A DNA stretch of 64,000 nucleotides from the IMG/VR virus record IMGVR_UViG_3300000439_000006; one strand, written 5' to 3'. Positions 1 to 39,300 of the stretch are shown here, in pieces. Both the position numbers and the translations under genes were made by a program. A model generated the notes under the pieces. It ran no database searches. It saw nothing but the letters and a program-made list of their open reading frames with translations, and was not told the DNA's origin. The stretch comes from a virus (lineage: Duplodnaviria; Heunggongvirae; Uroviricota; Caudoviricetes). Within the stretch, counting starts at the first letter, position 1, and each line of letters opens with the position of its first letter.

Positions 1-3000
1 ATGCTAAAGAAGATGGTATTTGATCAACCTTCTAATGAGATTAATCCTGTAGATGACGTAGATAAGAGTATAGAACTATATCTAAGAAGTTTACAGATGG
101 AAGGTGACAATGCTTTTGATGAATATGGATACACTGTATCTGTAAACTATTCTAACCTTGTACGTGGATTGTTTGCCGATCTTCAAAATACAACAAGTAT
201 GGATGAGATCGTAAAGCTTCTTCAAGAAAAAAGTGAAGACAATCCAGAATATAAAGCCATACTAAAGAAACTAGTTCTTCCAGAAGGCGCTAGTAAAAAA
301 GATATGGACTTTTATATAAAGTTTAGAAACTCTTTTACTAAAGCTTTTATTCCTTTAATGACTGTATCATTAGAAAGCGATGACACTGTAAAGGTGTTTG
401 CTGCAGCCACAGGTAAAAAAGGAACATATGAAAGAGTTATCCAGGCCAACTTTGCTCTTCGCGGTATGCCAGTTGTGGTAGATGCTGAGAAAGGAGAAGT
501 AATAAACCTAGCTCATAGAGATGAAGATGGTTCATGGGTGATTGATAAAACTGATCTAGATAAGATAACTAACTATATAGAAAAAGCTGGTCCTGATGTT
601 ATAGATAGAAAGATGGAGTTTCTTAAAGCCATAGGTTTTCAGTTTAGTCAAAAGACTGAAGAAACCCTAAGACGTGATGCAAAGTTCATGGGTAATAATA
701 AGTATAGTGGTTTTAATGCTTTATATAATCATCTTGTAACACAACTAAGTGACGGAGTAACCATTAGTAATAACCTAATCACGTCTTTAAAAAGAGATTA
801 TAAGGTTAAGAAAGTTTTGAAGAGTAAGGGACAGTCAAACATAATCAGCGATGTAATCGATCGTGAACTTAAAAACAACAGGGATTACAACGTTGATTAT
901 AGTATGGTTAATGCTGCAGGGGATAGACAATACGCTATACAACTACATAACAACTTCACCATCCTTAACAAGTTCTACTCTGATGTTAATGCATATCCCA
1001 CTCTAGAAAGTATACTAGCAGAACCTTCTATGTTCTGGATGGATCCTAGAACAAATCCATCTATACGTAATAGTTCTATACTTAATAGTCTTTTCTACTT
1101 TGATCCATTAGATCCAAACTTTGGATCTCGTAGGTATGTACAAGAAAGTAAGATAGAAGTTCCTAATCCTACAAAACCTGGTGAGACTATTTTAAAAAGT
1201 GTTTACGAATTCTCACCGACTAAAGGTAAACCTGTAACAATCACTATCAACAATACCGGTGGATTAAATACAAAGTTTGAAGGAGAGAAATCTCAAGGAG
1301 CGTCATCTACATCACTAAATGAAGTGGATAAGCTTTTACAAGATATGCATTCTTTCTTCTCATCAACAGCTTATAACAGTATGTTGAGACTGGGAGATAA
1401 GTCTACAGATCTTGGTATATCTGTTTCTTATTACATGGATCCTTTAACAGGAAAACCAGTTGTAAGTTCAGGTAAAACTATCATACCTGTAAATAAACCA
1501 TTAGGAAATATATCTGAGTATAGCACTATATTCAAAAGTGATAGTTTTTTAAAGTATGTAACAAATGCTTTGAAGGACACTGTAGAGATGAAACGTCTTG
1601 CTAAAGAAGAAGATTTTTTACAAAAGTATAAAGTGTCTGGAGCAGCTATATTAAAAAACTGGAGCTACTTTGATAAGATACTTTCTACAGAAACAAAAGG
1701 ATTGATTAAATCTGTAGATGATGTTGATACTTATAAAGAAAACATAAGACAAGATATTTTAAAATATTTTGAAGGAACAAACGGTGTTGTAGAAACGTTC
1801 ATTAGTAAGTTTGCTAAAGCTAAAGAAATAAATAATAACTTCTGGAACAAAAACATATCCTTTGAAAACGCGGCTAGATATTATTTAGCAAACTCATTTG
1901 TCACTGACATTGAACAGATGAAGTTGTTCTTTGGAGATCCTATATTCTTTAAAGACTTTCATAAGAGAGCATCTAAAGATTCAGCCACTGGTATTTTTAC
2001 ATTTATAGATGAGAACATCATTAACAACTTAAATGACCAGTCAACCGAGTATGGAGCTAACACAAACCTTGCGGCTAAAAGACTTATTGAAAGAGTTTAC
2101 CAGGAAAAGTTAAAAACAATAGAGACATCTAAAGCTTCAGAACAAGACAAAGAAAAACTAAGAAAACAATACGCTGCAGAAAGAGATCAAGCTTTGACAA
2201 GACAATCTGTAAGTAAGTCATATCGTTCAGCTGTTTTAAAAGATGTTGACTTCAAAAGTCCTTATTCAACTAAGATAGTTGAGAACGTAAATAAACTTAT
2301 AGGACTTAACTACTTGTCTGAAAAGATGAAAGAGTTATTTAAAAACTCTTTATCAAAAGTTGTAACGGACAAGTATGGTGGTACAGAAGCAGATGGTCAA
2401 GGTAAATGTACTTTTGACTTCTACCGTACCATGAACATATTAACTGGTCAATGGAGCTCAGACCAAGAACGTGTCTATAAAAAGATTGTAGACTACGCTC
2501 ACTTTAATGAACTAGCTGAGAATGAAACAGATCCAACAAAGCGTCTTGAGTATATAAAACAAAGAGATGATGTTGGTTATGATCCTTTAGAAGCCGTATA
2601 TTTTCCTCCTAAGAAGTTTCAATACTCAGGACCGGATAATAACAACTATGGGATGTATGTTCCCATCTTTGATAAGTTCTCTTTACAACCACTAATTCCT
2701 ACAAACATAAAAGGAACCGCTGACGAACATCTTGCTAAAAGAATGGAGTATAACGGTGTGGGTTATGTTAAGTTTGAGAGTGGATCTAAAACAGAAAGCC
2801 CTAAAGCTAAAGATAGTTATTATAGTGAGTATGATGAAAATAATCCTTCTGAAAGAAGTGTACTGGCGTTTAAACCAGAACAAACTTTTAAATCAGAACA
2901 AGAGCTTTTCTTTAATCACTTTAAAGAGCAGCTAGCTATAGATGCTGAGATACATGACCATGCTATATTTGGTTCACAGATAAGAAAGCTGATCATGATG

Positions 3001-6000
3001 AACCTTGATAAAGCTGAGTTTAAAGAACACTATGATAATTATAACAGATATATATTTCATCTTACAGAACTAGAAAAGACATCTCTTTACAATGAGATGG
3101 GTATAACTCGTAATGATGGTAAGCTGCAGATAGGTGATATGAATAAACTGGTTGAGTATTTCTTTAAAGAGATAAACAAAAAGAACCAGGATTCAAACGT
3201 ACGTAAAGCACTTAAGTATGACGAAGCCACTGGTAAGTTTGAAATACCTTTAGATGCCACTATACAAGCTCAGGTATTAGAAGGGATTATTATATCAGCT
3301 ATTAACAATAGAGCGGTACGATATAAAACAAACGGATCTATGTTAACTCAGATGGCTATTACAGGATCTGAAAAAATAGACAAGTTTAACAAAGCTGCGT
3401 CTGACGCAGCTCTTAAAACTTTTGGTAACAAAGAACTTAAGTATTACGATGTTGTAGAAGAAAATGGTAAAACGGTTGTTAAACCTATGCAGGTTAAGAT
3501 AGGACTCACTGGTCAGTGGTTAAACCTTTTGAATTTAGAACATCCAGATGGTTCTAAAATAGATACCATCGAACGTTTAAACGAAGCGTTAAAGAATGAA
3601 GACTGGATGAAACAAAACAATCGAAGTTTACAACTAGTTGCTTATCGTATTCCTACACAGGGTAGAAACTTTACGGATGTTATGCAAGTGGCTGAGTTTC
3701 TTCCAGCGTCAGTGGGTGACGCCATTATTATGCCAAGTGAGTGTGTTATCAAATCAGGATCTGACTTTGATATTGATAAGATGTTTGTTTTCTATCCAAA
3801 CTTGTATAAACAAGGAGGAGCAGCAAAAACATCATATACAGCTGAAGAACTTAAAGATCCTAAAAACTATGAAAGATTAAAAGCTGGTATACAAAACGAA
3901 CTTTACAACACTATGGCGGATATCATTTTACATCCGTCTAACTATGTAGAACTTGTTACACCTTCTGACAACTTTCACATCATGCCTTATGTGGATGAGT
4001 TGTATAAGTTGCTAGGTAAACCTATGAATTCTGATGACAAACATCAGAAGACCGATTTTGCTAACACAGACATTCTAAACCGTAATATAAACATAGATAA
4101 GTTTATAAGTCTTTTAAAAGGTAAATCAGATCTTGGTATCGCAGCGATCGCTAACACGTTTAACGTAATGTTCCAACGTGGAAAGGCTAACGCAAACATT
4201 GATTTCTTTAAAGAAAAAAACATTATATCTTTCTTTAACGTAGAAGGGTCTGTAGAAAAGAGCAACCTTCTTTTTAAATCTATAGATTATTCAAAAATAT
4301 ATGATGAGGATGGCGTATTAAAAAGTGAGTTCTTTAGTGAGTTTATTAACGCCTTCGTTGATGCCGCTAAGGATGACTATGTATTTGCTGTGAACGTTGT
4401 AACAGAGTTGAGCCCAATCATGTTCTATATGAAATACATGGGTATGTCGACAAAAAAGATTTTGGGACTGATGAACCAACCTGGCGTACGTCAATACATA
4501 AAAACATTATCTACATATCAAAACAAGTTTGTTAAAGGTGAAGAAAGTTTTACAGAAGGTGTGAGAGCTTTGGCTTTAAAAGACACTTTAAAACAACTTG
4601 GATATGATTTAGACCCAGATATAAAAAAAGCTGCAGATCTTGGTGATGACGAAGCTAAAAAAGAAGAAAAAAAGTATGGAAAAAGACAAGGTATATATGA
4701 GTATCTTTTAAGTAAGCTTCCTAAATTACATGATACACTATCTAAGTATTTTACCGGTGACGAGTTGTTTAAACAAGTGAAGAATGAAAACATAAATATA
4801 AAAACATTATCACCTAATACTAAGCTCTTACAGATAGCTTATTTGTTGGAACTAGAAAACATGAAGGTTCAATCAAATAGTATATCGGAAGCTCAAAAAG
4901 TATTAAAGTATGATACAAGTCCTTTCTCTAATACATTTGATATATATCAAAGAGAACAACAATACTTAATAGCTACAGCTGGTAATAATGTATTGTCTCC
5001 ATCATCTATAAAACGTATGTACAGTTCTAGTATTATTGCTCCTCTAAATGTATCAGATGATATAAAGAGTATACTGGAAAAACTGTTCCCTGTAAGAAAC
5101 AATGATAGGTTGAATAGATTTCTTTTAGATAAAGGATTACTACTTAAAAACTATATGGCTAACGAGTTTAGAAAGTTTTTAGTTGATGATGATCTTATGA
5201 AGATGGCTCGTATCGCTAAAAATGATATGATGAACTACATCTTACAAAACTACTTTGACAAGTCTGAGTCTGGAAAAGAATACTTTAAAGAAACATTTGG
5301 TACAGATAAGTCCTTAAATGAGTACTTATTAGACCTTGTACAAGGAGATACACTTGTTAAACAATGGGAAGCTATAAGAACTTCCGAAGACTTTGAAGAT
5401 CTGGCCGCTCAGTTTCCTATGGTGAGAAACATCATCTTAGAAAAAGGAGAAAAGAATAGTAGGATAAAAAGCTTTAGAATACTAGAGAATAGTGCAAACC
5501 CTGTTGAGAAAGAACAAATGATTCAACAGTTTGAAGATATAACTAAGCTACAAGAAAGTAAAGACATATCAACGTTCTTTAAAAACCTTGCGTTATATTC
5601 TATATTCCAATCAGGGATGAACACAACAGACTACAGCTATATGTCTATTGTACCTGCATCACTTGTAAACAAACTTTATGGATCAGCTGTAGATGAGTAT
5701 AACAAACTATCTACAGATGAGAAAGAAAATATGTTGAATAAATTTTATAGTAAGTTTCGATTAAACAACCCTGAGATATTTGGTTTAAAAGCTGACGCAT
5801 CTTTAACAAGAGAGATATCTAAAAGAGGAAAGTGGTATTCTGAAGAAACATCTTTAGCGTGGGCTTCTAAATCTGAAAAAGAAAAAGAACAAAAGAAACC
5901 TGAAGTTATTCCTGAAGGACCTATTGCTGCAACTATTCCACAAAACAAAGTGTCAGGAATAGATAGTAATGGTTCTTTAGTAGAAGCTAGTGATGCTGTA

Positions 6001-6567
6001 AAGAAAGTGTTGGGTCCTGCTCCACACTCTATAGATATGATTGAGGCTGGATTAAGAACCAGAACAACAAGATCTGGTAGTGAGATGGAAAAGTATTCTG
6101 TAAAAGTGGGCGATATTATTAAGAACATAGGAACATCTGCTGATGGATCTACTAAAGTGATATACGCTAGAGTGACTGCTATACATCCTAAAAACTCACC
6201 AGGATGGAGAGGTACATGGGAAAAAGAAGGTTGGAGACAAGAGGATGTTAAAGTGACTGATAAGTTCACAAGACCTGGAGCTGCAGCTATAGAGTTTGAA
6301 GTGATTAAACCTTCTGATAAAACAAACCCTGTAAAAGAAGCTGAACCTATAAAAGCTGATAAAAATGTTGTATCTTTGAATAGTAAAACAACATCCGAAC
6401 GTATAGAAGACTTCACTACTAAAAACAATATCGACATAGAAGAATACCAACGTCAACTTGGTATGACAAAAGAAGAGTTGTTTAAAGTTTGGGAGTTTTC
6501 TTATAACGAAGAAAAGATTGGAAATCAAACCATAGAAGAGTTTCTTAGAGACCTGCTGTGTGAGTAA
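1..6567 (+). CDS. Giant virion-associated RNA polymerase-like protein (crAss-like gp66-type); may be 5'-partial because the ATG sits at window position 1
   Basis: 2188-aa uninterrupted ORF. It contains ...IKSGSDFDIDKMFVFYP..., and a DFDID aspartate triad is the catalytic motif I recall for the virion-packaged RNAP of the crAss-like phage phi14:2. Size and AT-rich context fit. Confidence 0.65.
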   Translation: MLKKMVFDQPSNEINPVDDVDKSIELYLRSLQMEGDNAFDEYGYTVSVNYSNLVRGLFADLQNTTSMDEIVKLLQEKSEDNPEYKAILKKLVLPEGASKKDMDFYIKFRNSFTKAFIPLMTVSLESDDTVKVFAAATGKKGTYERVIQANFALRGMPVVVDAEKGEVINLAHRDEDGSWVIDKTDLDKITNYIEKAGPDVIDRKMEFLKAIGFQFSQKTEETLRRDAKFMGNNKYSGFNALYNHLVTQLSDGVTISNNLITSLKRDYKVKKVLKSKGQSNIISDVIDRELKNNRDYNVDYSMVNAAGDRQYAIQLHNNFTILNKFYSDVNAYPTLESILAEPSMFWMDPRTNPSIRNSSILNSLFYFDPLDPNFGSRRYVQESKIEVPNPTKPGETILKSVYEFSPTKGKPVTITINNTGGLNTKFEGEKSQGASSTSLNEVDKLLQDMHSFFSSTAYNSMLRLGDKSTDLGISVSYYMDPLTGKPVVSSGKTIIPVNKPLGNISEYSTIFKSDSFLKYVTNALKDTVEMKRLAKEEDFLQKYKVSGAAILKNWSYFDKILSTETKGLIKSVDDVDTYKENIRQDILKYFEGTNGVVETFISKFAKAKEINNNFWNKNISFENAARYYLANSFVTDIEQMKLFFGDPIFFKDFHKRASKDSATGIFTFIDENIINNLNDQSTEYGANTNLAAKRLIERVYQEKLKTIETSKASEQDKEKLRKQYAAERDQALTRQSVSKSYRSAVLKDVDFKSPYSTKIVENVNKLIGLNYLSEKMKELFKNSLSKVVTDKYGGTEADGQGKCTFDFYRTMNILTGQWSSDQERVYKKIVDYAHFNELAENETDPTKRLEYIKQRDDVGYDPLEAVYFPPKKFQYSGPDNNNYGMYVPIFDKFSLQPLIPTNIKGTADEHLAKRMEYNGVGYVKFESGSKTESPKAKDSYYSEYDENNPSERSVLAFKPEQTFKSEQELFFNHFKEQLAIDAEIHDHAIFGSQIRKLIMMNLDKAEFKEHYDNYNRYIFHLTELEKTSLYNEMGITRNDGKLQIGDMNKLVEYFFKEINKKNQDSNVRKALKYDEATGKFEIPLDATIQAQVLEGIIISAINNRAVRYKTNGSMLTQMAITGSEKIDKFNKAASDAALKTFGNKELKYYDVVEENGKTVVKPMQVKIGLTGQWLNLLNLEHPDGSKIDTIERLNEALKNEDWMKQNNRSLQLVAYRIPTQGRNFTDVMQVAEFLPASVGDAIIMPSECVIKSGSDFDIDKMFVFYPNLYKQGGAAKTSYTAEELKDPKNYERLKAGIQNELYNTMADIILHPSNYVELVTPSDNFHIMPYVDELYKLLGKPMNSDDKHQKTDFANTDILNRNINIDKFISLLKGKSDLGIAAIANTFNVMFQRGKANANIDFFKEKNIISFFNVEGSVEKSNLLFKSIDYSKIYDEDGVLKSEFFSEFINAFVDAAKDDYVFAVNVVTELSPIMFYMKYMGMSTKKILGLMNQPGVRQYIKTLSTYQNKFVKGEESFTEGVRALALKDTLKQLGYDLDPDIKKAADLGDDEAKKEEKKYGKRQGIYEYLLSKLPKLHDTLSKYFTGDELFKQVKNENINIKTLSPNTKLLQIAYLLELENMKVQSNSISEAQKVLKYDTSPFSNTFDIYQREQQYLIATAGNNVLSPSSIKRMYSSSIIAPLNVSDDIKSILEKLFPVRNNDRLNRFLLDKGLLLKNYMANEFRKFLVDDDLMKMARIAKNDMMNYILQNYFDKSESGKEYFKETFGTDKSLNEYLLDLVQGDTLVKQWEAIRTSEDFEDLAAQFPMVRNIILEKGEKNSRIKSFRILENSANPVEKEQMIQQFEDITKLQESKDISTFFKNLALYSIFQSGMNTTDYSYMSIVPASLVNKLYGSAVDEYNKLSTDEKENMLNKFYSKFRLNNPEIFGLKADASLTREISKRGKWYSEETSLAWASKSEKEKEQKKPEVIPEGPIAATIPQNKVSGIDSNGSLVEASDAVKKVLGPAPHSIDMIEAGLRTRTTRSGSEMEKYSVKVGDIIKNIGTSADGSTKVIYARVTAIHPKNSPGWRGTWEKEGWRQEDVKVTDKFTRPGAAAIEFEVIKPSDKTNPVKEAEPIKADKNVVSLNSKTTSERIEDFTTKNNIDIEEYQRQLGMTKEELFKVWEFSYNEEKIGNQTIEEFLRDLLCE

Positions 6568-6579
6568 AACAAAAATAAT

Positions 6580-9500
6580 ATGATTAGTTGTCCTAATAAA
6601 AACACTAAAGAGTGGAAAGAACTTTCAGCTGCTATTGGAGCTAAACAAGCTATGTTAGCTTTTATACGTAATGGTGACCAAATCCCTTCAGAAGCTGAAG
6701 CTAGAGAACTACTAACTAACAAAGGATTGTTAGAAGGGCTTCGTAATATGCCCATGTTATCTCAGGAAACCGTATTCAGTACACTACAAACTAACAATCT
6801 TCTTACAGGATCTCCTATACAGGATAGAGGTAAGACATGGTATCAGTTAGCTGATAGAGAAGATGTGGCTGAAAAGCTAGGTCAGTACACTAATGAGTAT
6901 GGACCTGTGTTAGAATATGACAATGGGTATGTAACAGTTGCTCAAGACTCTATAGATAAATGGAACGAAGTGGCTCAGCTTAAATCATCTAAACAGATGA
7001 ATGCTACAGAACTTGCTGAAGAGTTTCTTGATAGGATTGGTGTTCCTATACAAGAAAGATCTGATGTACTTGCCCGTCATGGATCTAACGGGGTGGCTAA
7101 CATGGCTGAAAAGATGGTTGAGATACAATCTGGTATGAAGGATGTGGCGCTTCCAGAAGAAGCTTTACACTTCTTCTTAGAAATGCTTCCTCAAGATCAT
7201 CCAGCTTTATTAGAAGCTCTTGATAAGATTAGAAACAAATCTGTTTATGGAGAAACATTAGAACAATATAAGAACAATCCAAACTATCAGGTTGATGGTA
7301 AACCAAACTTTACCAAGATAAAAAAAGAAGCTCTGGCTAAAGAGCTGGCTTCACGTATGAAATCTAAAGACCACGGATGGTTATCTACACTTATAGATGG
7401 AATACTAAACTTTATAAAGAGTCTTACGCTTCAAAAAACAGCTATTGAAAAACTAGAAGACTTGTTTTATAGTAAAGACATTAGTCTTTTAAATATGAAC
7501 TTAAACTCTTCTGAGCTTTATAATCAGTTAGCTGATGAAACAAAGAGTTTCTACGAGGCCCAGTCAGCTAACGAAGCACAAAAGAAAACACTTGATGCCA
7601 TATTAGCTCATACCGCAGCTATAAACTTTGATAAAAGTAATCATATCTTAACACATCACGCAACAGTGACAAGTGATGGTATTGTTATGAGATCTGTAAC
7701 ACAGGTTTTAGGATCTGACTTTTATAGTGAGCTAGATCATATGCAAACTGTAGAAACCATTCTCGATAACTTTGAACAATTCTTTCCGGATATTATAGGA
7801 GAAGACTCTCCAAAGATAAAAAACTATATCGATTCTGTAAGCGGTAAAAAAGATGAAGAAGAGCTTATAAAAAAATATAAAGCAAAAGTTTTACTTGACT
7901 ACTTTACAGAGAAGTTGTTAAACGACACTACAAAAGAAACAGTGGAAGATCTGTTAAAAGTTCTTCCTGCAGGTATAGCTAAACAAATAGTACAAGCTAG
8001 TCAAAACAAACAAAAGACATTGTTTGGTACAGCTGTGCACACTATTGTTGAGAGTATCATCATGGATAAAGAAATCGATCTGGATAATCTGGATCCGATA
8101 ATTTATCAGTTTATGGATAAGAAAACTCTTATGGGTCTCATCTATGGTAAAGGATTAAAAGATACTGGTATAAGAGGATTGATACAAGATCTACAGAAAG
8201 ATGGATCTGTATTAATGAGTGAGGTGGAAGTTGGAAACGGAACTGTTGGTGGGGTTATAGATTTAATAGCTATACGTCCTGATGGTACAGCTGAGGTGTA
8301 TGATTTTAAAACAAAGTTTTTAAGAGAACACAAGTTTAACCAAGCTGATATCAAAGCTGAGTTTGAGCAGGTTACAAGAGAACTTTCTAAGTTTGGTATT
8401 AAAAAAGACCCAGCGATATTAGCGGGACTAGCTGATACCAGACGTAGTTTAAATCAGAAGTACACACAACAACTTTCTTTATATAAGAACTTATTGATGG
8501 AGGCCGGAATTCGTGTAGGTGGATTACACATTATTGGTGTACCATATAGAACAAACGCTGAAGGTAAAGTGACAGAAGTAAAAGCTTTTGTTGCCGACCC
8601 TATCTCCTACAACGATAAAATAGGATCTTATCTGTTTAACATAGCAGATAAATCCATGGATGCATCTAAGAAATCTAAGAAGATGACGATTGAAGATGAA
8701 CGTACAAAGCTTCTAGATGACATCAGTAATGACTCCATGAAAGAAAGCTTTACTAAAGCGCTTACAAGATTACAACAACTCTACGAACACTTTAAAAAGA
8801 ACAAGAATATAAACACTATATATGATCTTCTCACTGACAAGACATCCAAAACAAACAGAGTGGACACTCAGAGAGATCTGGTAAGAACTATTCTTAACAA
8901 CTTTGAAAACTTTGATGATGCTACCAAGTTCTTAAATGTACAAAAAGGTTTCCTAGAGCTTATAGATTCATCTGTAGGTATTATACAAACTGTAGCTAAA
9001 GAGTTTGATCGTCTACGTAAACTCAAAGCTGTTGACGAGAAGTCTGCAGTGCAGCGTATCAATGAGTTACAAAAGGTGAATGACTTTGTAACAGGATATG
9101 AGACAATGTTTAAAGAGATGTTAGGTCACTTAGATAGTGCTGACTTAGATAATCCTTTAGTAAAAAGATTGGCCGATATGATTGGTATCACTACTAGTAT
9201 AAAGAGTCAATATGTAGATAGTATATTTGGAGATGTAACAGATATAATGTTAAGTGAGTTTTCTCCAGATGATCTAGAAAACATGAGAAGACTTTATACA
9301 GAAGACATGATAGCTGCTAAACAAAGAGGTGATGAGAAATTAACAAAGATGTATGAAGAAAGAATAAAAAATCTTCCTTCTAAAGAATCAATAGCTGAGG
9401 TGATAAAAGGGAACAGAGGAGATGTTGGTTGGTTCTGGGGTAAGTTTGTTGCCACTATATCAAACCCTGATATAATTTTGTCGAGTGTTGCCAAACGTCT

Positions 9501-12500
9501 TAAAGCTGTATTAGATAGAGTGAGACTTATGAACAAAGAGTTCAAAGATAACTTAAGTGTTGAGTTCGATAAACGAGCTAAACTTTATGGTAGAGGACTT
9601 GATATCAAAAAGATAAACGAAAGCCTTGTATACGAAGCTAAAGAGTTTAATGCATCTACAGGTAAAGAGATGAATGTGTCATACTTTAAGAGCGAATACC
9701 ATGAAAAACTTTACGCTGATTATAATAAGCTTAAGTATAATCTAAAACAAGCCGAGGAAGAAAAGGATGTAACCAAAATCAAAGCGGCTAAACTAGCTAT
9801 AAAGAACTTTGAACAGAAATACTTTGAGAGTAACTTTACCAATGAATACTTTAAACTAACAAGTGTCTTAGATAAAGAGGTAACTCATGCCGGTAATAAA
9901 ACAACTATACGTGAACTTATCGCTGATATCTATGATAAGATAAATGCTGTACAAAGACGCGGTGGTTACAGTGATGAAGATATAAGCTCAGGTAATATGA
10001 CTGATGAAGATCTTCAAGAACGTATGGATCTGTTTAGACAAATCTCATCTTTAAAAGAAAGTAATGATGAAAATGGTCTTCCTAAAACAGGAGAGGCTTT
10101 AAAGATAGCTGAGGCTTTAAAGGAATACGATAAGAACAAAGAACTTCTTTATGACTATGTAGAACTTACTGACTTGTTTAATCATAAACAACAAGAGATG
10201 AAGTTAAAATATGGTGAAGGAAGCGAAGAATACGAAGCCTGGATGGCCAAGAACACTCGTCTTGCTATCAGTGATGAGTATTACACTCGTAGACAACAAA
10301 TCTTAGATCGTATAAAAGAGATTAATAATAACGATGAGGCTTCTGTTAAAATGGATGAGCTTTATAGAGAGCTTAGTGTTTTAGCTAAACCTTATAAAGA
10401 TGCTGATGGATATATCAGAGGACAAAACATGCCGGCTGATGTAGCTCAAAAGATAAAACGTATTGAGGCTGAGATAGTTACACAACGTCAAAACCTGGAT
10501 AACTTCATCATGAACGGTAACACAGCTGCTGAAAAAGAAGAAATCAACCAGATAAACTTTTTAAAGTATAATGATAAAGCTTACGATCGTGAAAGATTAA
10601 ATGAGCTTATAAGAGAAGGTAAAAACCGTTTACAAGATAGAATAGATAACGATCCTGATTATGCTGAGAAGTATGATGAGATGACAGATCTTTTAAATGA
10701 GCTTTACAAGATGGGTAAAACAGAAATAACTGAGTATTATTACGAAGAGCTTGATAAACAAAGAAGAAACTTTGCTGAAGCAAACAACGTAACATACGAA
10801 GAGTTTATGAATAACCCAGAGATGTATGAAGACTTTGAAAAAAGTGAATGGTTTATAAACAACCACAACATCATTGATAAGATTGTATACGAAGATCCTG
10901 AAACTGGTGAGACACTTGGTTCTAAGATTAGAAATCCTATATGGAGTTGGAAACGTAATATGCCTATAGACAAGTATATCACTAGAAAACCAGCCAATCA
11001 TTTCTATCAAAGAACTCTTAAAGAATCTTACACAGATGCTAATGGTAAAGAAGTGTTACTTAAAAACACTGACAATAAAGATGTTCAAGGTAGATTCAAA
11101 CCAAAGAACGCTGAACAGTATAAAAAAGAATATGGTAAAGAACATCCATATCTAAACAAAGACTTCACTAGTTTAAGAGATAAATACACTAATGGAACAG
11201 CTTCTGAAAAAGAAAAAGTGGACTATGAAAACCTATTGTTTATTCATAAGTCAATGTTAGATGCGCAAGAAGGTATAGAAGTTTCTCAAAGACTTGGTCT
11301 TGCTGTTCCTTTCTTAGAAAAACATGGAAGAGAAAGAACAATTGAAAGTCGCGGTAACAACTTTATAGAAAAAGGAAACAGTATATGGCAAGGTATTAAG
11401 CGTTCGGTTACGTCTACAGAACAGGATGTGGACCAGGAAGGAATACATTCTTCTAAAACCACAGAGTATTCACACTTAGCCACTATGGATAACAATGAAT
11501 ACAAGTTTGTTCCTGTAAGATATAGTACAAAAGGAGAAGCTGATAACGCCAGTTATGACGTATGGGGAGGAGTATTAAACTATGTAGCTGCTACCAATCG
11601 TAAAAAAGAACTTGACCAGGAGATGGCTATGTTAAATGGCTTGGAAAAAATGTTAGGTGACGAACGTAATCAACCTAAAAGTGAAGCAAATAACCTAATA
11701 GCTAATAAAATCTTTAAGAAATATCTTCCAGATATGACTCAAAAGATTAATAGCGGAACCAACACTCGTTTAGAAGTATTAAAAAGCTTTGTAAACAGTG
11801 TTATGTTTAACGAAGAATCCTTCAAAGGATATGAGGTGTTGGGTGTTAACTCTCAGAAAGTGGTAAATAAGATGATGAGAATGATTAGTTTTACCACTCT
11901 TGGGTTTGCTCCATTCAACTGGATGACAAACTTACTATCAGGTCATGTACAAAACATTGTAGAAGCTGTGGGAGGAAACACTATAACCCTTAATGGATAT
12001 AAAGATGCAAAGAACATGATATATATGGGATCTTCTAAATATGGAACTCCTATAAAAGATATGATGAATGACTATTCTAAAGTGGGAAACAAATCATTCT
12101 GGGGACAAATCATGGAATACTTTGATCCTATACAGGGAGAGGTTGATGATGAGTATGGACATAAAACAAGCTTTAACAAGTTTGCCAATATATTACATGC
12201 TGGTGTATACGCTGGTAAGATGTGGGGTGAGTGGGAAATCCAGATGAGTACCTTCATAGCTTATATGCTAAACAACAAAGTGTCTGATGGTAAAGTGGTA
12301 GACAGAGAATCATTTATAACCAAACACATGGGAGATATATCTGATATGTCTATAAAAGAAATCTCTGCTAAAAAGCTTGAAGCTATAAAAGCTTTTGATG
12401 CGCTGGAACATAATCTGTTAGATCTTTTTGAAATGAAAGATGGTAAGCTGGTTGTAAAAGCTCAGTTTAAAGATGTATTTGAACTAGGATCTAAAGACTT

Positions 12501-13290
12501 TAGTAATGTAGTGGCTAAGCTTCACTCTATGCAAAAGAGAATCAACGGATCATATAATAAGTTTGATAAAACATATATTGAGAAAACATCTCTTGGTAAG
12601 ATGGCTACGTTCTTTAGAAAGCACGTTATTCCATTGGGTGTTAATAGACTAGGTACATTAAGAGAAAACTACGAGAGTATGAGTACAGAAGAAGGATTTT
12701 ATATCACCTTCTGTAAAACTATGGGTAAAGATCTGATGCATTTCCGTCTACAAAATATTATAAACTGGGAAAACTATTCAGATAGAGAAAAGAGAGCTAT
12801 CAAAAGAACCCTAACAGATGTAGGTATTATTCTTACATGTATGGCTGCATACACACTTATAGGTGGGTATAACGAGAATGATAAGGATAAGATGAAGAAA
12901 CTAAGAAGAACATCTTGGGCCAATCAGGCTATGGTGTTTGAGTTGTTAAAACTTAAATCTGAAACAGAACAGTTTATACCGGCTCCTGATATGGGATTGA
13001 ACGAGTTGAAAAGACTTTATTCTAACCCATCGCTTATTCTGTCAGAAACAACTCAGATGTTCTACATGACTAGTTTGTTAGCTAAACAAGCTGCACACGC
13101 TATTCCTGGATCTAACTTCTTTGAGAACGATCTTTATTATCAAAAAGATACAGACCAAGGTGGTCTTGGAGATAAAGGAGATTCTAAACTACTACACGAA
13201 CTTGTCAGATCATTTAGTGGATATAGTGGTAAAACATTCCATCCAGCTGACGCGGTCAAATCATTTGAATATGGACAAAGAATCAAGTAA
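6580..13290 (+). CDS. Giant structural or ejected virion protein, function unknown (crAss-like large virion protein block)
   Basis: 2236-aa ORF starting 13 nt after the first giant ORF. No recognisable catalytic motif. Coding periodicity is strong, and only tiny spurious antisense ORFs lie inside it. Confidence 0.6.
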   Translation: MISCPNKNTKEWKELSAAIGAKQAMLAFIRNGDQIPSEAEARELLTNKGLLEGLRNMPMLSQETVFSTLQTNNLLTGSPIQDRGKTWYQLADREDVAEKLGQYTNEYGPVLEYDNGYVTVAQDSIDKWNEVAQLKSSKQMNATELAEEFLDRIGVPIQERSDVLARHGSNGVANMAEKMVEIQSGMKDVALPEEALHFFLEMLPQDHPALLEALDKIRNKSVYGETLEQYKNNPNYQVDGKPNFTKIKKEALAKELASRMKSKDHGWLSTLIDGILNFIKSLTLQKTAIEKLEDLFYSKDISLLNMNLNSSELYNQLADETKSFYEAQSANEAQKKTLDAILAHTAAINFDKSNHILTHHATVTSDGIVMRSVTQVLGSDFYSELDHMQTVETILDNFEQFFPDIIGEDSPKIKNYIDSVSGKKDEEELIKKYKAKVLLDYFTEKLLNDTTKETVEDLLKVLPAGIAKQIVQASQNKQKTLFGTAVHTIVESIIMDKEIDLDNLDPIIYQFMDKKTLMGLIYGKGLKDTGIRGLIQDLQKDGSVLMSEVEVGNGTVGGVIDLIAIRPDGTAEVYDFKTKFLREHKFNQADIKAEFEQVTRELSKFGIKKDPAILAGLADTRRSLNQKYTQQLSLYKNLLMEAGIRVGGLHIIGVPYRTNAEGKVTEVKAFVADPISYNDKIGSYLFNIADKSMDASKKSKKMTIEDERTKLLDDISNDSMKESFTKALTRLQQLYEHFKKNKNINTIYDLLTDKTSKTNRVDTQRDLVRTILNNFENFDDATKFLNVQKGFLELIDSSVGIIQTVAKEFDRLRKLKAVDEKSAVQRINELQKVNDFVTGYETMFKEMLGHLDSADLDNPLVKRLADMIGITTSIKSQYVDSIFGDVTDIMLSEFSPDDLENMRRLYTEDMIAAKQRGDEKLTKMYEERIKNLPSKESIAEVIKGNRGDVGWFWGKFVATISNPDIILSSVAKRLKAVLDRVRLMNKEFKDNLSVEFDKRAKLYGRGLDIKKINESLVYEAKEFNASTGKEMNVSYFKSEYHEKLYADYNKLKYNLKQAEEEKDVTKIKAAKLAIKNFEQKYFESNFTNEYFKLTSVLDKEVTHAGNKTTIRELIADIYDKINAVQRRGGYSDEDISSGNMTDEDLQERMDLFRQISSLKESNDENGLPKTGEALKIAEALKEYDKNKELLYDYVELTDLFNHKQQEMKLKYGEGSEEYEAWMAKNTRLAISDEYYTRRQQILDRIKEINNNDEASVKMDELYRELSVLAKPYKDADGYIRGQNMPADVAQKIKRIEAEIVTQRQNLDNFIMNGNTAAEKEEINQINFLKYNDKAYDRERLNELIREGKNRLQDRIDNDPDYAEKYDEMTDLLNELYKMGKTEITEYYYEELDKQRRNFAEANNVTYEEFMNNPEMYEDFEKSEWFINNHNIIDKIVYEDPETGETLGSKIRNPIWSWKRNMPIDKYITRKPANHFYQRTLKESYTDANGKEVLLKNTDNKDVQGRFKPKNAEQYKKEYGKEHPYLNKDFTSLRDKYTNGTASEKEKVDYENLLFIHKSMLDAQEGIEVSQRLGLAVPFLEKHGRERTIESRGNNFIEKGNSIWQGIKRSVTSTEQDVDQEGIHSSKTTEYSHLATMDNNEYKFVPVRYSTKGEADNASYDVWGGVLNYVAATNRKKELDQEMAMLNGLEKMLGDERNQPKSEANNLIANKIFKKYLPDMTQKINSGTNTRLEVLKSFVNSVMFNEESFKGYEVLGVNSQKVVNKMMRMISFTTLGFAPFNWMTNLLSGHVQNIVEAVGGNTITLNGYKDAKNMIYMGSSKYGTPIKDMMNDYSKVGNKSFWGQIMEYFDPIQGEVDDEYGHKTSFNKFANILHAGVYAGKMWGEWEIQMSTFIAYMLNNKVSDGKVVDRESFITKHMGDISDMSIKEISAKKLEAIKAFDALEHNLLDLFEMKDGKLVVKAQFKDVFELGSKDFSNVVAKLHSMQKRINGSYNKFDKTYIEKTSLGKMATFFRKHVIPLGVNRLGTLRENYESMSTEEGFYITFCKTMGKDLMHFRLQNIINWENYSDREKRAIKRTLTDVGIILTCMAAYTLIGGYNENDKDKMKKLRRTSWANQAMVFELLKLKSETEQFIPAPDMGLNELKRLYSNPSLILSETTQMFYMTSLLAKQAAHAIPGSNFFENDLYYQKDTDQGGLGDKGDSKLLHELVRSFSGYSGKTFHPADAVKSFEYGQRIK

Positions 13291-28604: not shown

Positions 28605-29345
28605 TTACTTTTGATTTTTGATTAAATCGTTTAACCAAGACTTGAACGATACAGGGTTTCCTGTATGTATGGCATAGTAGTCCCGGATAGTCATCTCAGA
28701 ATAAGGAGCGTCAGCCTCAGATGCTAAAGCTGGAGCTTGCACCGGAGTTTTGAAGAAAGTGACAGCTTTACCTGTTTCTTTCTTTTCTTGCTTCCTCTCA
28801 CTTTCTAAAAACTTATCACTACTTGTAGCTGCAGCTGTCTTAGCTATTGCTGCGCTAGTTGGATTAACAACTCTCAACTCTTCTAAAGGAACATAGAATG
28901 AACCTCTTTCGTTCATCTCATATTCTTCTTCAAAGTGAGGATTGTAAGGTACACGGTAAACCGTTCTTTCGGGAGAAGCCGGTTTATAGTCTCGATCGAT
29001 CAGCTCAAAGAACAACCCATTGGGCCTTTTGAACTCAGAGGGAAAAATCCCCACTACGGTTTTACCTACATTCTTACCTGTGTTAGTATAAAACCCCATC
29101 TTCATCTGAAAATCGTTGGGTGTTATACCTAGGTCACGGATTAAATCATCGTGATCCTTTCTAATAACTGCAAGCTGATGCGCTTTGTAGTCTGCTTCTG
29201 TTGCGAAGCCATCGTAAACTCCTGACATGTGTCGTGTGTTTGTTGTGAAAAATGTGTTTGTTAGGTGGTTCTCCATCTTGGAGCCTTTCCAGATCCACCA
29301 CCTGTAGGATTGGAAACGGTTGGAGGCATTGATTCCCTCATACAA
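28605..29345 (-). CDS. Hypothetical protein; the true start is probably an internal Met because the 5' end overlaps the helicase gene
   Basis: 246-aa ORF. Confidence 0.4.
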   Translation of the reverse strand: MYEGINASNRFQSYRWWIWKGSKMENHLTNTFFTTNTRHMSGVYDGFATEADYKAHQLAVIRKDHDDLIRDLGITPNDFQMKMGFYTNTGKNVGKTVVGIFPSEFKRPNGLFFELIDRDYKPASPERTVYRVPYNPHFEEEYEMNERGSFYVPLEELRVVNPTSAAIAKTAAATSSDKFLESERKQEKKETGKAVTFFKTPVQAPALASEADAPYSEMTIRDYYAIHTGNPVSFKSWLNDLIKNQK

Positions 29346-30274
29346 CCCTTGTTAAACTCTGCTTTCATGAATACAATGTTAGAACTATTAGGACTATTTC
29401 TAGACTTAATAATATGCATGGCGATGTCATCACTAGTCATCACATAACCATGGGGACCATATACAGGTACATCAGCTATGTAAGGGCGGTTCATCACAGA
29501 CACCATGTCTGAACACTGCATTAGACAATCACCACCAAAGATATCACTACTAGTTGGATAGTTACCTATATTTCCTGGTATTTTTCTTACGGCTTCATCA
29601 ATACTTCTGTTAAGTTGACTTAACATAATAACAATAATAGGGAGATCTCTTTTTACTCTAACTAAAGTTTCACCAGTGTTGTACAAAGTGTTCATCTTTT
29701 CTCTTTCTGAAACGGACTGTTTGATTAACCAACTATGGTCTATCGTGACGATGAGAGGCTTACCACCCAACGCATTATAATAATGGTGGATAGCTTTCTC
29801 CATCTCAAGATGTGTCATAGAGTCGCTAATCAAGTAACGCATAACTCCTAGCTTTTCTAAAGCTAATGTGTCATGCATGTGTTGGATCATCTGTTTATGA
29901 GCGAAGTCTTGCAACTCAGAGTAGGCGCTAAGAACAGTGTTGTAATCTAAAGCTGTCTCTGCAGCGAAAGCTCTTGACGCATACTGTTTAGTTCCCATCT
30001 CAAACTGAAACTCCAAGATGTTAAAATCCACCCCAGGGTTTAACATTCGAGATTCTCTAAGTATCTGACTTACGATCATTGTTTTGCCAGATCCGGGTCT
30101 AGCACCTATCGTCCATAGGGAGCCCCATTCTAAACCATTGACACCGGAAGCGTTAATCCCGGCCCATGGAGTTTTGAAAGACACGTTACGTCCTTTCTTT
30201 CTATCTTCTATATATATCAGACCCTCTCTAAGGATTTCTGAATATCGTCTCGCCCCAAACGGGTTTTTTTCCAT
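29261..30274 (-). CDS. DnaB-like replicative helicase (RecA-fold C-terminal domain)
   Basis: WTIGARPGSGKTMIVSQI resembles the DnaB Walker A (AARPxMGKT). A Walker-B-like LIVTIDHSWLI is also present. Confidence 0.6.
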   Translation of the reverse strand: MEKNPFGARRYSEILREGLIYIEDRKKGRNVSFKTPWAGINASGVNGLEWGSLWTIGARPGSGKTMIVSQILRESRMLNPGVDFNILEFQFEMGTKQYASRAFAAETALDYNTVLSAYSELQDFAHKQMIQHMHDTLALEKLGVMRYLISDSMTHLEMEKAIHHYYNALGGKPLIVTIDHSWLIKQSVSEREKMNTLYNTGETLVRVKRDLPIIVIMLSQLNRSIDEAVRKIPGNIGNYPTSSDIFGGDCLMQCSDMVSVMNRPYIADVPVYGPHGYVMTSDDIAMHIIKSRNSPNSSNIVFMKAEFNKGCMRESMPPTVSNPTGGGSGKAPRWRTT

Positions 30275-36566: not shown

Positions 36567-36593
36567 GAAGCAGAGGCTAGTGGCCTCTGCTTC
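36567..36593 (-). promoter_or_regulatory. Perfect 11-bp stem hairpin between the MoxR and vWA genes (attenuator or terminator candidate)
   Basis: GAAGCAGAGGC-tagtg-GCCTCTGCTTC. The minus-strand downstream flank is only moderately T-rich. Confidence 0.4.
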
Positions 36594-36628: not shown

Positions 36629-37628
36629 TTAGAAAGGGTTGTTAATAGCTTTTGCAGCATCAGCGCTCCCACCACTTAATTCACCCATCAAAGTGTCAAA
36701 ATCTTCTACGTTGTAATCTTTACGAGCTGGATGGCTTTGTAAGATGTACTGAATAGATGTTTCGATTTCTTCCACTTGATTTTGATCCATGATACCACGA
36801 GTAGAATACGCGTTGATACCAGCTTCTATCTCAGCGATAGCTAATTCAAGCTGCTCGTTGGTTGTATAAGAAGCTAACATTTCCACTTTACTCATGATAG
36901 CTTTCACTTCAGGAGACATCAGTTTGTTCTGAAGCTCTGAACCTGCAGCTTGAGAGATCATGATTTGGGCTGTCTTTACAAGAGCCTTATCAATGCTGAT
37001 ATCCCAGATGAAAGAAACAGCTTTAGCCAAGCCAGGAACGAAGGTTAACGTTCTGTCTGAGCTATGTTGATAACCCACTTCTAAATACTTCTCAAGCTTG
37101 TTGCTTGGGATAGTAAGAGTGGCCATCTCATCTTTACTAGGAACACCGATAGCAAATCTTTCACGATAGTTACGAGCTCCTTTGTCGAAATACTTAACCA
37201 ATTCACCGGCAGATACACGGTTAACGGTCATTTTCAACATAAATCTGTCCCAGAAAGGACTTCCCACTTCTTCTTTAGGAATCTCATTACAAGTGGCTAC
37301 AAACAGTTTCCACTTACAAGGGATTTTGTGTTTACCATTAAACAAGAACTTCTCGTTCATTACACCTAACATCGCGTTACGGATAGCTGAAGAAGCTTTA
37401 TCCACCTCATTGATGATAACAATCTCTGCGTCAGCGATCGGAGTGTTTAACGCATACTTGTTATGGGTGAACAGCTCTTCCAAATCGGGCATACCTTTAA
37501 TTTCACTAGCCTTAGTACCTTCATCAGTTTCTAAGATGTAAATCTTGTTCGCGAAGTCTTCGGCACTCATGTTACCAGCTCTGTTTAGCCAAGCCTTGGC
37601 ATATTCTATAATAGTTTTGGTTTTAGCA
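36629..37628 (-). CDS. MoxR-type AAA+ ATPase, exon 2 (C-terminal part carrying Walker B and sensor)
   Basis: IVIINEVDKA is Walker-B-like. FVATCNEIP matches the MoxR sensor (hhATxNP). The reading frame stays open 58 nt upstream of the annotated Met and reads ...AKTKTIIEYAKAWLNRAGN-M. Confidence 0.55.
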
Positions 37629-38692
37629 CAATATGTTATCCTATAGGCTCTTTATCCTATAGATCTATACCTTTATATATACGTATAGTTCAGACTATAT
37701 CATCACCAGATTTCTCTGGGCAGGACGCTCGTGTTAGCATTACCATCCTCAACATTAGTTGATAGGACTCGGCTATTAGTCGTTGAACCTTCAAGAGTAT
37801 TACTACTCAAGCTTGGCTTCTGATTGTCTTGTTTCACATCAAGAGTTTCCAGAAATTCATCCTGTTTAACGGGCGCTAGCTTAATCTCATAAGTCAGATT
37901 AGGAAAAAGATAAAGATTTTTTGATAAAAAAGTATATAACATAGAGATAGATGTAAATAAAATGGTTTCTTCTGTTTCTTTTATATGAACAGATATATTA
38001 TTATATTTAGTCATTATTCTACTTTTAGATTGTTTATCAACAGGAATAAAAGGCTCACCATGGTATCTAAATTGATAACCATGACTACTTAATCTTCCAT
38101 CATTTTGACAAACTTTAGATACTTTTCCTGTATTATTATTAGCATATTTTTGAGATGCTTTAGTAATAGATTCACAAGTATCTAGTAAGTTTCCTTCTAA
38201 ATTATACACATCTACTTTTTTACAAGGAGATCCTGTATGTTTTATTATACCTTTTTTTCTTTTATCTTTTAAAGTTTTAGCTATTTTAATAGCGGATTCC
38301 TTAGAAGGAGTATTTCTTATAACTTCTTTGGTTATGTTTATAGATGGATTTGTTAGATTAATATAAGATTGTTCTTTTTGAGTAAGAATTTTTTCTTCAC
38401 ATTGTTCTAATATATCACATCTAAAAGCTTTTAACCCATGTTTATTATATAGGTTTTGCATTATAGGATTGGTATGTTTATTGTTTAGTAGATGAGACTT
38501 GTGATCATGTAATCTACTATAAATATTAATACTACTTCCTATATAAAAATACTCTTTATCTTTTCCTTTTACTGTTATCTTGTAAATACCTGAAATCTTA
38601 TTCCAGTTTTTATGTATAATCATAATATATTAGTTTATATATATTATAAATATACAATGTTTACAAGACTTTACAAAAATTATTTTGTAGAA
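37629..38692 (-). mobile_element. Putative self-splicing (group I-like) intron carrying a GIY-YIG homing endonuclease gene; boundaries approximate
   Basis: The insertion splits the Walker-A codons: exon 1 ends ...LLVGNPGV and exon 2 begins AKTKT.... The proposed 5' splice site follows a U and the 3' splice site follows a G. The joined product reads GNPGVAKT. Confidence 0.45.
37703..38623 (-). CDS. GIY-YIG homing endonuclease (intron-encoded candidate)
   Basis: N-terminal ISGIYKITVKGKDKEYFYIGSS is a GIY-YIG motif. 306 aa. It lies entirely inside the interruption of the MoxR gene. Confidence 0.7.
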   Translation of the reverse strand: MIIHKNWNKISGIYKITVKGKDKEYFYIGSSINIYSRLHDHKSHLLNNKHTNPIMQNLYNKHGLKAFRCDILEQCEEKILTQKEQSYINLTNPSINITKEVIRNTPSKESAIKIAKTLKDKRKKGIIKHTGSPCKKVDVYNLEGNLLDTCESITKASQKYANNNTGKVSKVCQNDGRLSSHGYQFRYHGEPFIPVDKQSKSRIMTKYNNISVHIKETEETILFTSISMLYTFLSKNLYLFPNLTYEIKLAPVKQDEFLETLDVKQDNQKPSLSSNTLEGSTTNSRVLSTNVEDGNANTSVLPREIW

Positions 38693-39300
38693 ACGCCCGG
38701 ATTACCCACTAACAAACAAGGAAGGCCTGTTGCTTCAGCTAAAGCTAGCATTTTAAATACTTCTTCTTTGTTTATCAAAGAAGTTTCGATGGTTCTTACT
38801 TCTTGTGCTGCTCTCTTTGTCAATAATCTTGCTTTTGGCTGTTGAGTCGTACTCATGTTTTTTACTTTTTGTTGTTTAATAATTTTCTCTATATCGAGAG
38901 CAGAGTAATCTGCTAGTAGCTCAAAGGACTTTTCGCCAATAGTATCACTTGTACCAGCGTGTCGTCCATTCTTAGTAAGATATAAATGTTGTCTTTCGAT
39001 TGTATATTCCCAACCAATTACAGGATTTTGTTCTATACACTTATCAATCGTGACGATTTGACCTTTCAAATCAGGATGACAACCCAACCCGGAATTTACA
39101 ATCTTCACTCTGTCTCCCTTTTTAAACTTGGCAACAGATGGTGGTGGTTCTTCTGGTAAAGGTATAGTTCTTAACCATCTATGTACACCACGTAATGTAG
39201 TCACCACTTTATAGTTGAAACCATCATTACCTTTCATGATGGTTCCAACTGGAGTGGCTGCAGCTGATTGACTTGGGGAAGGTCTTGAAACCCTACTCAT
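38693..39300 (-). CDS. MoxR-type AAA+ ATPase, exon 1 (N-terminal domain plus the first half of Walker A)
   Basis: The ORF ends ...GLPCLLVGNPGVSTK*. LLVGNPGV is the start of a MoxR Walker A (LLxGxPGxAKT), which is cut off by the insertion. Confidence 0.55.

Follow-up and report, generated by a model that had tools for sequence, protein, structure and literature searches.

In the window, by which we mean the whole 64,000-nucleotide (nt) stretch of the IMG/VR virus record IMGVR_UViG_3300000439_000006 analysed here, a MoxR-type AAA+ ATPase gene on the minus strand is interrupted after the second base of a valine codon in its Walker A motif (GNPGV|AKT) by a 1064-nt insertion (37629..38692). We conclude that this insertion is very probably a mobile group I intron of subgroup IA, located in the Walker A codons of a phage gene and carrying an open reading frame (ORF) for a GIY-YIG homing endonuclease. 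Its ribozyme fold, its first helix (P1), its exact boundaries, the protein restored by joining the exons and its presence or absence in related phages were established in this study, whereas self-splicing is a prediction from these features. The insertion has a guanine plus cytosine content of 27%, compared with 36% for the window. All features described below lie on the minus strand unless marked otherwise.

A first-pass annotation, made from the sequence without database searches, had listed three ORFs in this region (38680..39300, 37703..38623 and 36629..37570) and interpreted them as a MoxR gene split within its Walker A codons by an intron with a GIY-YIG gene. The ORFs and their motifs were all found where it had placed them, and the computational checks it had proposed all favoured its interpretation. 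The upstream ORF (38680..39300; 206 amino acids, aa) terminates in ...GLPCLLVGNPGVSTK, with LLVGNPGVSTK as its last residues. The downstream ORF (36629..37570; 313 aa) contains the motifs IVIINEVDKA and FVATCNEIP, and its frame remains open 5′ of its methionine, reading ...AKTKTIIEYAKAWLNRAGN-M; on its own, it matched the bpMoxR and AAA_5 profiles only from mid-profile onwards. Exon 1 (38693..39300) encodes a conserved N-terminal domain, which the uninterrupted homologue L004 shares, followed by the beginning of the AAA+ domain and by Walker A as far as LLVGNPGV, its first half; the last two bases of the exon are the GU of the valine codon. Its frame continues to a UAA stop (38680..38682) 12 nt inside the intron. 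Exon 2 (36629..37628) begins U GCU AAA ACC (..V-AKT) and provides the Walker A Lys-Thr, Walker B (IVIINEVDKA), the sensor region and the C-terminal domain.

Joining position 38693 to 37628 maintains the frame and yields GNPGVAKT, which agrees with GxxGxxK[ST] and leaves the AAA+ domain contiguous; the predicted ligated RNA reads GGGCGU|UGCUAAAACC across the junction. The conceptual spliced protein of 535 aa matches AAA_5 over positions 2-139 of 139, compared with 33-139 for exon 2 alone, and it scores 81.1 bits against bpMoxR (profile 5-183), where exon 2 alone reached 60 bits. Across the junction it is identical to two uninterrupted homologues over 26 residues. In the intron-less alleles L132 and L004, the corresponding site lies at CCTGGAGT|GGCTAAAAC. 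Comparison with intron-less homologues puts the insertion point exactly at GV|AKT. This was the preferred junction of the first-pass annotation, and homologues bear it out, as GxPG[VT]AKT is present in 119/119 uninterrupted sequences. The second junction it had considered, giving GNPGVSKT, is ruled out because serine occurs at this position in none of the 119. As originally drawn (GUUUCU|AAAACC), that junction would put a U before the 3′ splice site, and for a serine version compatible with U and G at the splice sites (GGGCGUUU|...GUG|CUAAAACC) the sole guide match falls within the downstream (3′) strand of P3.

Two further features of the host gene were noted. Walker B of the phage MoxR clade has the form hhhhNE rather than hhhhDE (IVIINEVDKA; 37400..37430 in the window) in 120/120 members examined (P0001-P0120), and NE at this position is a trait of the whole family that is independent of the intron. 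Immediately 3′ of the MoxR stop codon is a terminator-like hairpin (36567..36593).

The Rfam group I model (RF00028) matched 37672..37939 over its full length (model positions 1-253) at 64.8 bits, above the gathering score of 50 and with an E-value of about 1e-14 to 1e-15. The match falls within the 3′ third of the endonuclease ORF. Homologue-based boundaries define an intron of 37629..38692 with U at position -1 and G at the omega position (G37629), and the same boundaries were obtained for the intron copies L125, L126 and L129. To examine the fold, relatives of the core were gathered from IMG/VR with a 16-nt P6/P7 pattern and combined with three diverged intron copies from other MoxR genes, giving a 12-sequence alignment. 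From this alignment, RNAalifold independently recovered P3 (37858-64 with 37721-27), P4 (37849-54 with 37818-23), P5 (37840-44 with 37827-31), P6 (37815-17 with 37787-89), the P6a hairpin with its GUAA loop (37795-37808), an insert of two helices that separates P7 from the 3′ strand of P3, P9 (37665-88) and P9.1 (37641-62), all within a core spanning 37629..37864. P7 (GACUA with UAGUC; 37777-81 with 37693-97) is invariant and was added to the predicted structure as a pseudoknot before pairs were counted, and P8 (CCAGA-GAAA-UCUGG, with a GAAA loop; 37706-19) was recognised by eye only. The joining segment J8/7 (GAUGAUAUAGUC) is likewise invariant in the alignment. The intron closes with the tail GAUAACAUAUUG (37629-40) in 4/4 MoxR copies; its final base is the omega-G, and the next base is the first U of exon 2.

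Base pairing was retained in 97.2% of alignment cells, and 29/49 pairs showed changes on both sides. None of 500 shuffled controls reached any of five measures, and slid controls paired at 28-40%. The 44-nt insert between P7 and the P3 3′ strand (37733..37776) consists of two nested covarying helices of the P7.1/P7.2 type. Its position assigns the intron to subgroup IA.

Next to the core lies the internal guide sequence GCGCCCG (37870..37876), which supplies the 3′ strand of P1 by forming seven base pairs (bp) with the exon-1 tail CGGGCGU (38693..38699); U38693 of this tail enters the U.G pair located at the 5′ splice site. This guide occupies intron positions 817-823, 816 nt into the intron, and is separated from P3 only by UUAAA. 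No other site in the intron can both pair with CGGGCGU, placing U.G at the splice site, and leave the core undisturbed. P1 also covaries: in L125, L126 and L129 the exon reads CUGGGGU and the guide, at the equivalent position, GCCCCAG, a change of two compensatory pairs. Similarly, in four dUTPase introns of the same lineage the guide complements its own exon and lies directly before (U/A)UAAAC and P3. The exon/guide pairs are AGACUCU/GGAGUCU in L024 (340 nt, ORF-less), GACUCU/GGAGUC in L086, CGACGCU/GGUGUCG in L104 and AGACUAU/GUAGUCU in crAssphage.

The endonuclease ORF (37703..38623; 306 aa) lies in the P1 loop, and its UGA stop (37703..37705) is in J8/7. The protein scores 31.3 bits with the Pfam GIY-YIG domain (PF01541; cut-off 22.6), and the GIY, YIG, Arg, His and Glu motifs are present as SGIYKI, FYIGSS, YSRLHDH and KEQSYI. 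Full-length homologues with 63-69% identity are encoded in the equivalent intron of other phages; no confirmed relative of the protein was found in IMG/VR. The first-pass annotation had been concerned that only about 70 nt of AT-rich sequence without obvious P1 or guide pairing flank the endonuclease gene, and had reasoned that any ribozyme core must overlap the ORF. The flanks indeed measure 69 nt (5′) and 74 nt (3′), and no guide sequence was found in the 5′ flank. The perceived absence of a clear P1 was mistaken, as GCGCCCG sits inside the endonuclease ORF. In agreement with the expected overlap, the final ~85 codons of the ORF encode the guide sequence and P3-P8, an overlap of about 255 nt with the core, so the shortness of the flanks is no obstacle to a complete ribozyme. 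The 5′ untranslated part of the intron (38624..38692; 69 nt) includes a 19-nt block, UUUUGUAAAGUCUUGUAAA, that is identical in 4/4 MoxR intron copies. A sigma-70-like match at 38676..38649 is weak, and the regional count of promoter-like sites does not exceed that in shuffled sequences. The conserved block is therefore no more than a candidate signal, which may serve in expression of the endonuclease.

Several observations weigh against a functional group I intron. In 11% of shuffled introns, a 7-bp match that allows wobble pairs arises at some position; P1 alone is thus not significant, and the case for it rests on its position and covariation. P2 is absent, P10 is possible but weak (AGCU at 37878..37881 with exon-2 bases 2-4, GCU; 3 bp), and the P1 loop of about 800 nt could slow folding in vitro. 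Our scan found no convincing promoter or Shine-Dalgarno sequence for the endonuclease. Finally, the metagenome collection was scanned for the junction in contiguous form, whether spliced or intron-less, once with the codons of this phage and once with those of the L125/L126/L129 group; both scans returned 0 matches, which is uninformative on splicing.

The very long P1 loop, the weak P10 and a U-A pair in P4 that is private to the window (G-C in the other 11 sequences) might be taken as signs that the intron has decayed and no longer splices, leaving MoxR a pseudogene in this phage. We consider this very unlikely. All helices are intact in the window copy, the change in P4 is compensatory, and P1 is a perfect 7-bp helix. 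Moreover, both exons are open, are 84-88% identical to uninterrupted homologues and retain every motif. In four diverged copies, the core is nearly invariant despite drift of the endonuclease to 63-69% identity.

Slightly less probable still is a gene truly split by a free-standing homing endonuclease gene, with two MoxR fragments produced separately, perhaps reassembling, as in other phage genes that carry endonuclease insertions, and no RNA splicing. Gene callers do report three separate ORFs, and exon 2 contains an in-frame ATG 58 nt 3′ of the junction. However, a start at this ATG does not explain why the 58 nt before it encode AKTKTIIEYAKAW, which is conserved in 119/119 homologues. In addition, exon 1 stops in the middle of the P-loop, such that neither fragment has a usable GxxGxGK[ST], and a split gene would not account for a complete, covarying group I core above threshold or for a guide that tracks the exon sequence among copies. 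Although the window comes from a metagenome-type assembly, we dismiss an assembly chimera as next to impossible, since 6.7 kilobases (kb) are 100% identical in an independent Logan assembly (L001), the 3′ part of this sequence recurs in one ENA contig and one JGI contig, and the same arrangement with diverged sequence is present in at least three further phage lineages.

The distribution of the group I intron among MoxR alleles is informative about its mobility. The intron-bearing locus L126 and the intron-less locus L132 have flanks that are 98.2% and 93.5% identical and differ by a precise 1076-nt insertion. Two substitutions alone distinguish them at the insertion site, A to G at -3 together with G to A at +1. 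These changes are synonymous, and each favours the pairing of P1 and P10. No contiguous GGGGT|AGC was found in the metagenome collection. In exon 2, intron-bearing MoxR alleles are only 77-83% identical to each other, yet clearly closer intron-less relatives exist for L126 (99.7%, P0027), L125 (92%, P0070) and the window (87.9%, P0001). For L129 the gain was smaller (84.5% to its intron-less relative versus 79%). Similarity between the endonucleases does not parallel similarity between the host genes. This pattern of precise presence or absence, with its sporadic distribution, is as expected of homing, with or without occasional loss, with cleavage by the endonuclease as a predicted step.

These features suggest how the intron would operate. 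In the transcript, the exon-1 tail CGGGCGU would pair with the guide GCGCCCG 816 nt downstream to form P1, with the U.G pair marking the 5′ splice site. Once the core (P3-P9) had folded, an external guanosine would attack after U38693, and omega-G37629 would define the 3′ splice site, so that ligation (...GGC GU|U GCU AAA ACC...) would produce GNPGVAKT and the 535-aa ATPase. The GIY-YIG enzyme presumably cleaves intron-less alleles during co-infection, and repair would then copy the intron into them. Translation of the endonuclease ORF would unfold P1-P8 and would be incompatible with ribozyme folding on the same RNA molecule. The endonuclease would thus have to come from a different or later RNA population, with its synthesis separated from splicing.

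Overlap between endonuclease genes and this core extends to sister introns. Three unrelated endonuclease families (GIY-YIG, HNH and LAGLIDADG) were observed at one P1-loop position, reading into the core in one frame (L024, L080, L086, L093, L104; P0121-P0196), and their shared tail often terminates in GDDIV and a stop, the translation of J8/7-P7. In 29/81 matches of a homologue search, the core-encoded tail KQGELLE..NQQPSL.SN.LEGSTTN..NTSALP was attached to differing endonuclease bodies. The frame through the core is open even in the ORF-less L024, and the invariant J8/7-P7 sequence GGUGAUGAUAUAGUCUGA has stops in all three frames. The simplest reading is that RNA constraints keep the core frame free of stops and that GGUGAUGAUAUAGUCUGA then ends all frames. 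A more speculative idea, which we think unlikely, is that the core doubles as a shared coding module, donating a common C-terminal tail to unrelated GIY-YIG, HNH and LAGLIDADG endonucleases that land in the P1 loop. If the tail were functional, or if ribosome transit through the guide acted as a switch between splicing and endonuclease synthesis, the intron would be a built-in platform for the capture and control of homing endonuclease genes, beyond mere overlap.

The window contains a second group I intron that lies outside any ORF (Rfam, 98 bits, 50623..50850). Its assigned boundaries are 50582..50840 (259 nt), with the 5′ splice site after U50841 and G50582 as omega-G, within a gene of about 50558..51343. 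By manual reading, it interrupts the T-loop of a transfer-messenger RNA (tmRNA)-like gene with the 5′ end GGGCCAG. Predicted splicing would give the T-arm ACGGG-UUCGACU-CCCGU as well as the acceptor GGGCCAG/CUGGUCC, which includes the pair G3.U70; the gene also has a tag-like frame ending ...VMAAA and a stop. It was called neither by ARAGORN, with default or lowered thresholds, nor by the Rfam tmRNA models. The 23-nt spliced 3′ end is identical to the 3′ end of an ARAGORN-called tmRNA at IMG/VR locus L134, which likewise starts with GGGCCAG, and our identification is based on the manual pairing together with the ends shared with this tmRNA. Bacterial tmRNA genes split by introns are known (PMC11915505). 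With the boundaries assigned here, the second intron of the window lies after the first base of the T-loop, a subsite described among the less common ones (PMC11915505).

Nearby, a transfer RNA (tRNA)-like element of about 125 nt (51403..51529) has the acceptor GGGGGAU/GUUCCCC, a D-arm-like GCUUAAUUGGUAAAC and the T-loop GGUUCGACUCC, with about 75 nt between the D and T regions. It was called by neither ARAGORN nor Rfam, and could be either a tRNA carrying a long insert or some other tRNA-like RNA. A tRNA at 51913..51982 was detected by Rfam (38.5 bits) and missed by ARAGORN. It overlaps the ORF 51635..52003 (122 aa), and at least the 5′ part of that ORF is therefore doubtful. On the plus strand, two very large ORFs are adjacent, one running off the start of the window (1..6567; at least 2188 aa) and the other at 6580..13290 (2236 aa). 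On the minus strand, the ORFs 28605..29345 (246 aa, TTG start) and 29261..30274 (337 aa) overlap. The match of the latter to DnaB-like helicase profiles is confined to their C-terminal part, and the pair may represent a further replication gene that has been interrupted or frameshifted.

The window belongs to the genome of an uncultured tailed phage and encodes a DNA polymerase, ligase, primase, helicases, NAMPT and UDG. Contigs of its relatives reach 121-135 kb, and its DNA polymerase is at most ~36% identical to that of any phage in the collection. The gene order UDG, small ORF, MoxR and a protein of ~500 aa is kept in relatives with and without the intron. A DNA search with the whole region against cultured-phage records returned one match only, to 43 nt of the core. 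We found no paper in the literature that links a MoxR-type ATPase to a group I intron.

These results correct the annotation of a widespread phage gene, as three called ORFs (a 206-aa protein of unknown function, a GIY-YIG protein and a truncated MoxR) become one 535-aa ATPase and a mobile intron. The P-loop of MoxR-type ATPases joins the phage sequences colonised by group I introns, and the lineage of the crAssphage dUTPase intron is seen to circulate in unrelated large phages, with another endonuclease family. The near-isogenic genomes with and without the intron also offer a natural case for homing and for co-conversion of flanking exons. The element itself belongs to a known lineage and class, that of phage subgroup-IA introns which carry a homing endonuclease and interrupt a conserved catalytic motif. 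It is of a textbook type and leaves the understanding of how such elements work unchanged.

The T4 td intron with its endonuclease I-TevI is a subgroup-IA intron in a phage protein gene, and I-TevI combines an N-terminal GIY-YIG catalytic domain with a C-terminal DNA-binding region and promotes homing in co-infection. The I-TevI ORF loops out of P6a and is not known to encode the guide or P3-P8. The MoxR intron shares with td the subgroup, a protein-coding phage host gene, a GIY-YIG endonuclease and presumed homing into intron-less alleles, and it differs in its host gene and in the placement of its ORF, which sits in the P1 loop and overlaps the core by about 255 nt.

Among annotated introns, the nearest relative is that of the crAssphage dUTPase gene (Carjivirus communis, BK010471; dUTPase and HNH endonuclease, KP06_gp34/gp35), which belongs to the same ribozyme lineage, with 77.8% nucleotide identity over 87% of the core. 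In this record the exons are joined, and an intron-encoded HNH ORF that overlaps the core is annotated. As in the MoxR intron, the ORF extends from upstream of the core into it, P2 is absent, the guide immediately precedes UUAAAC and P3, and a phage enzyme is interrupted within a conserved catalytic motif. The two differ in host gene (dUTPase versus MoxR ATPase), endonuclease (HNH versus GIY-YIG) and phage, since crAssphage is a gut member of the Crassvirales and the window derives from an unclassified phage of about 125-135 kb. ORFs are known to overlap the group I core in some introns, where expression needs to be controlled so that folding is undisturbed (PMC3984707, Fig. 2b). The MoxR intron fits this class, with the distinction that its overlap is extensive, reaching from the guide through P8, and that GIY-YIG, HNH and LAGLIDADG endonucleases share the frame in its sister introns.

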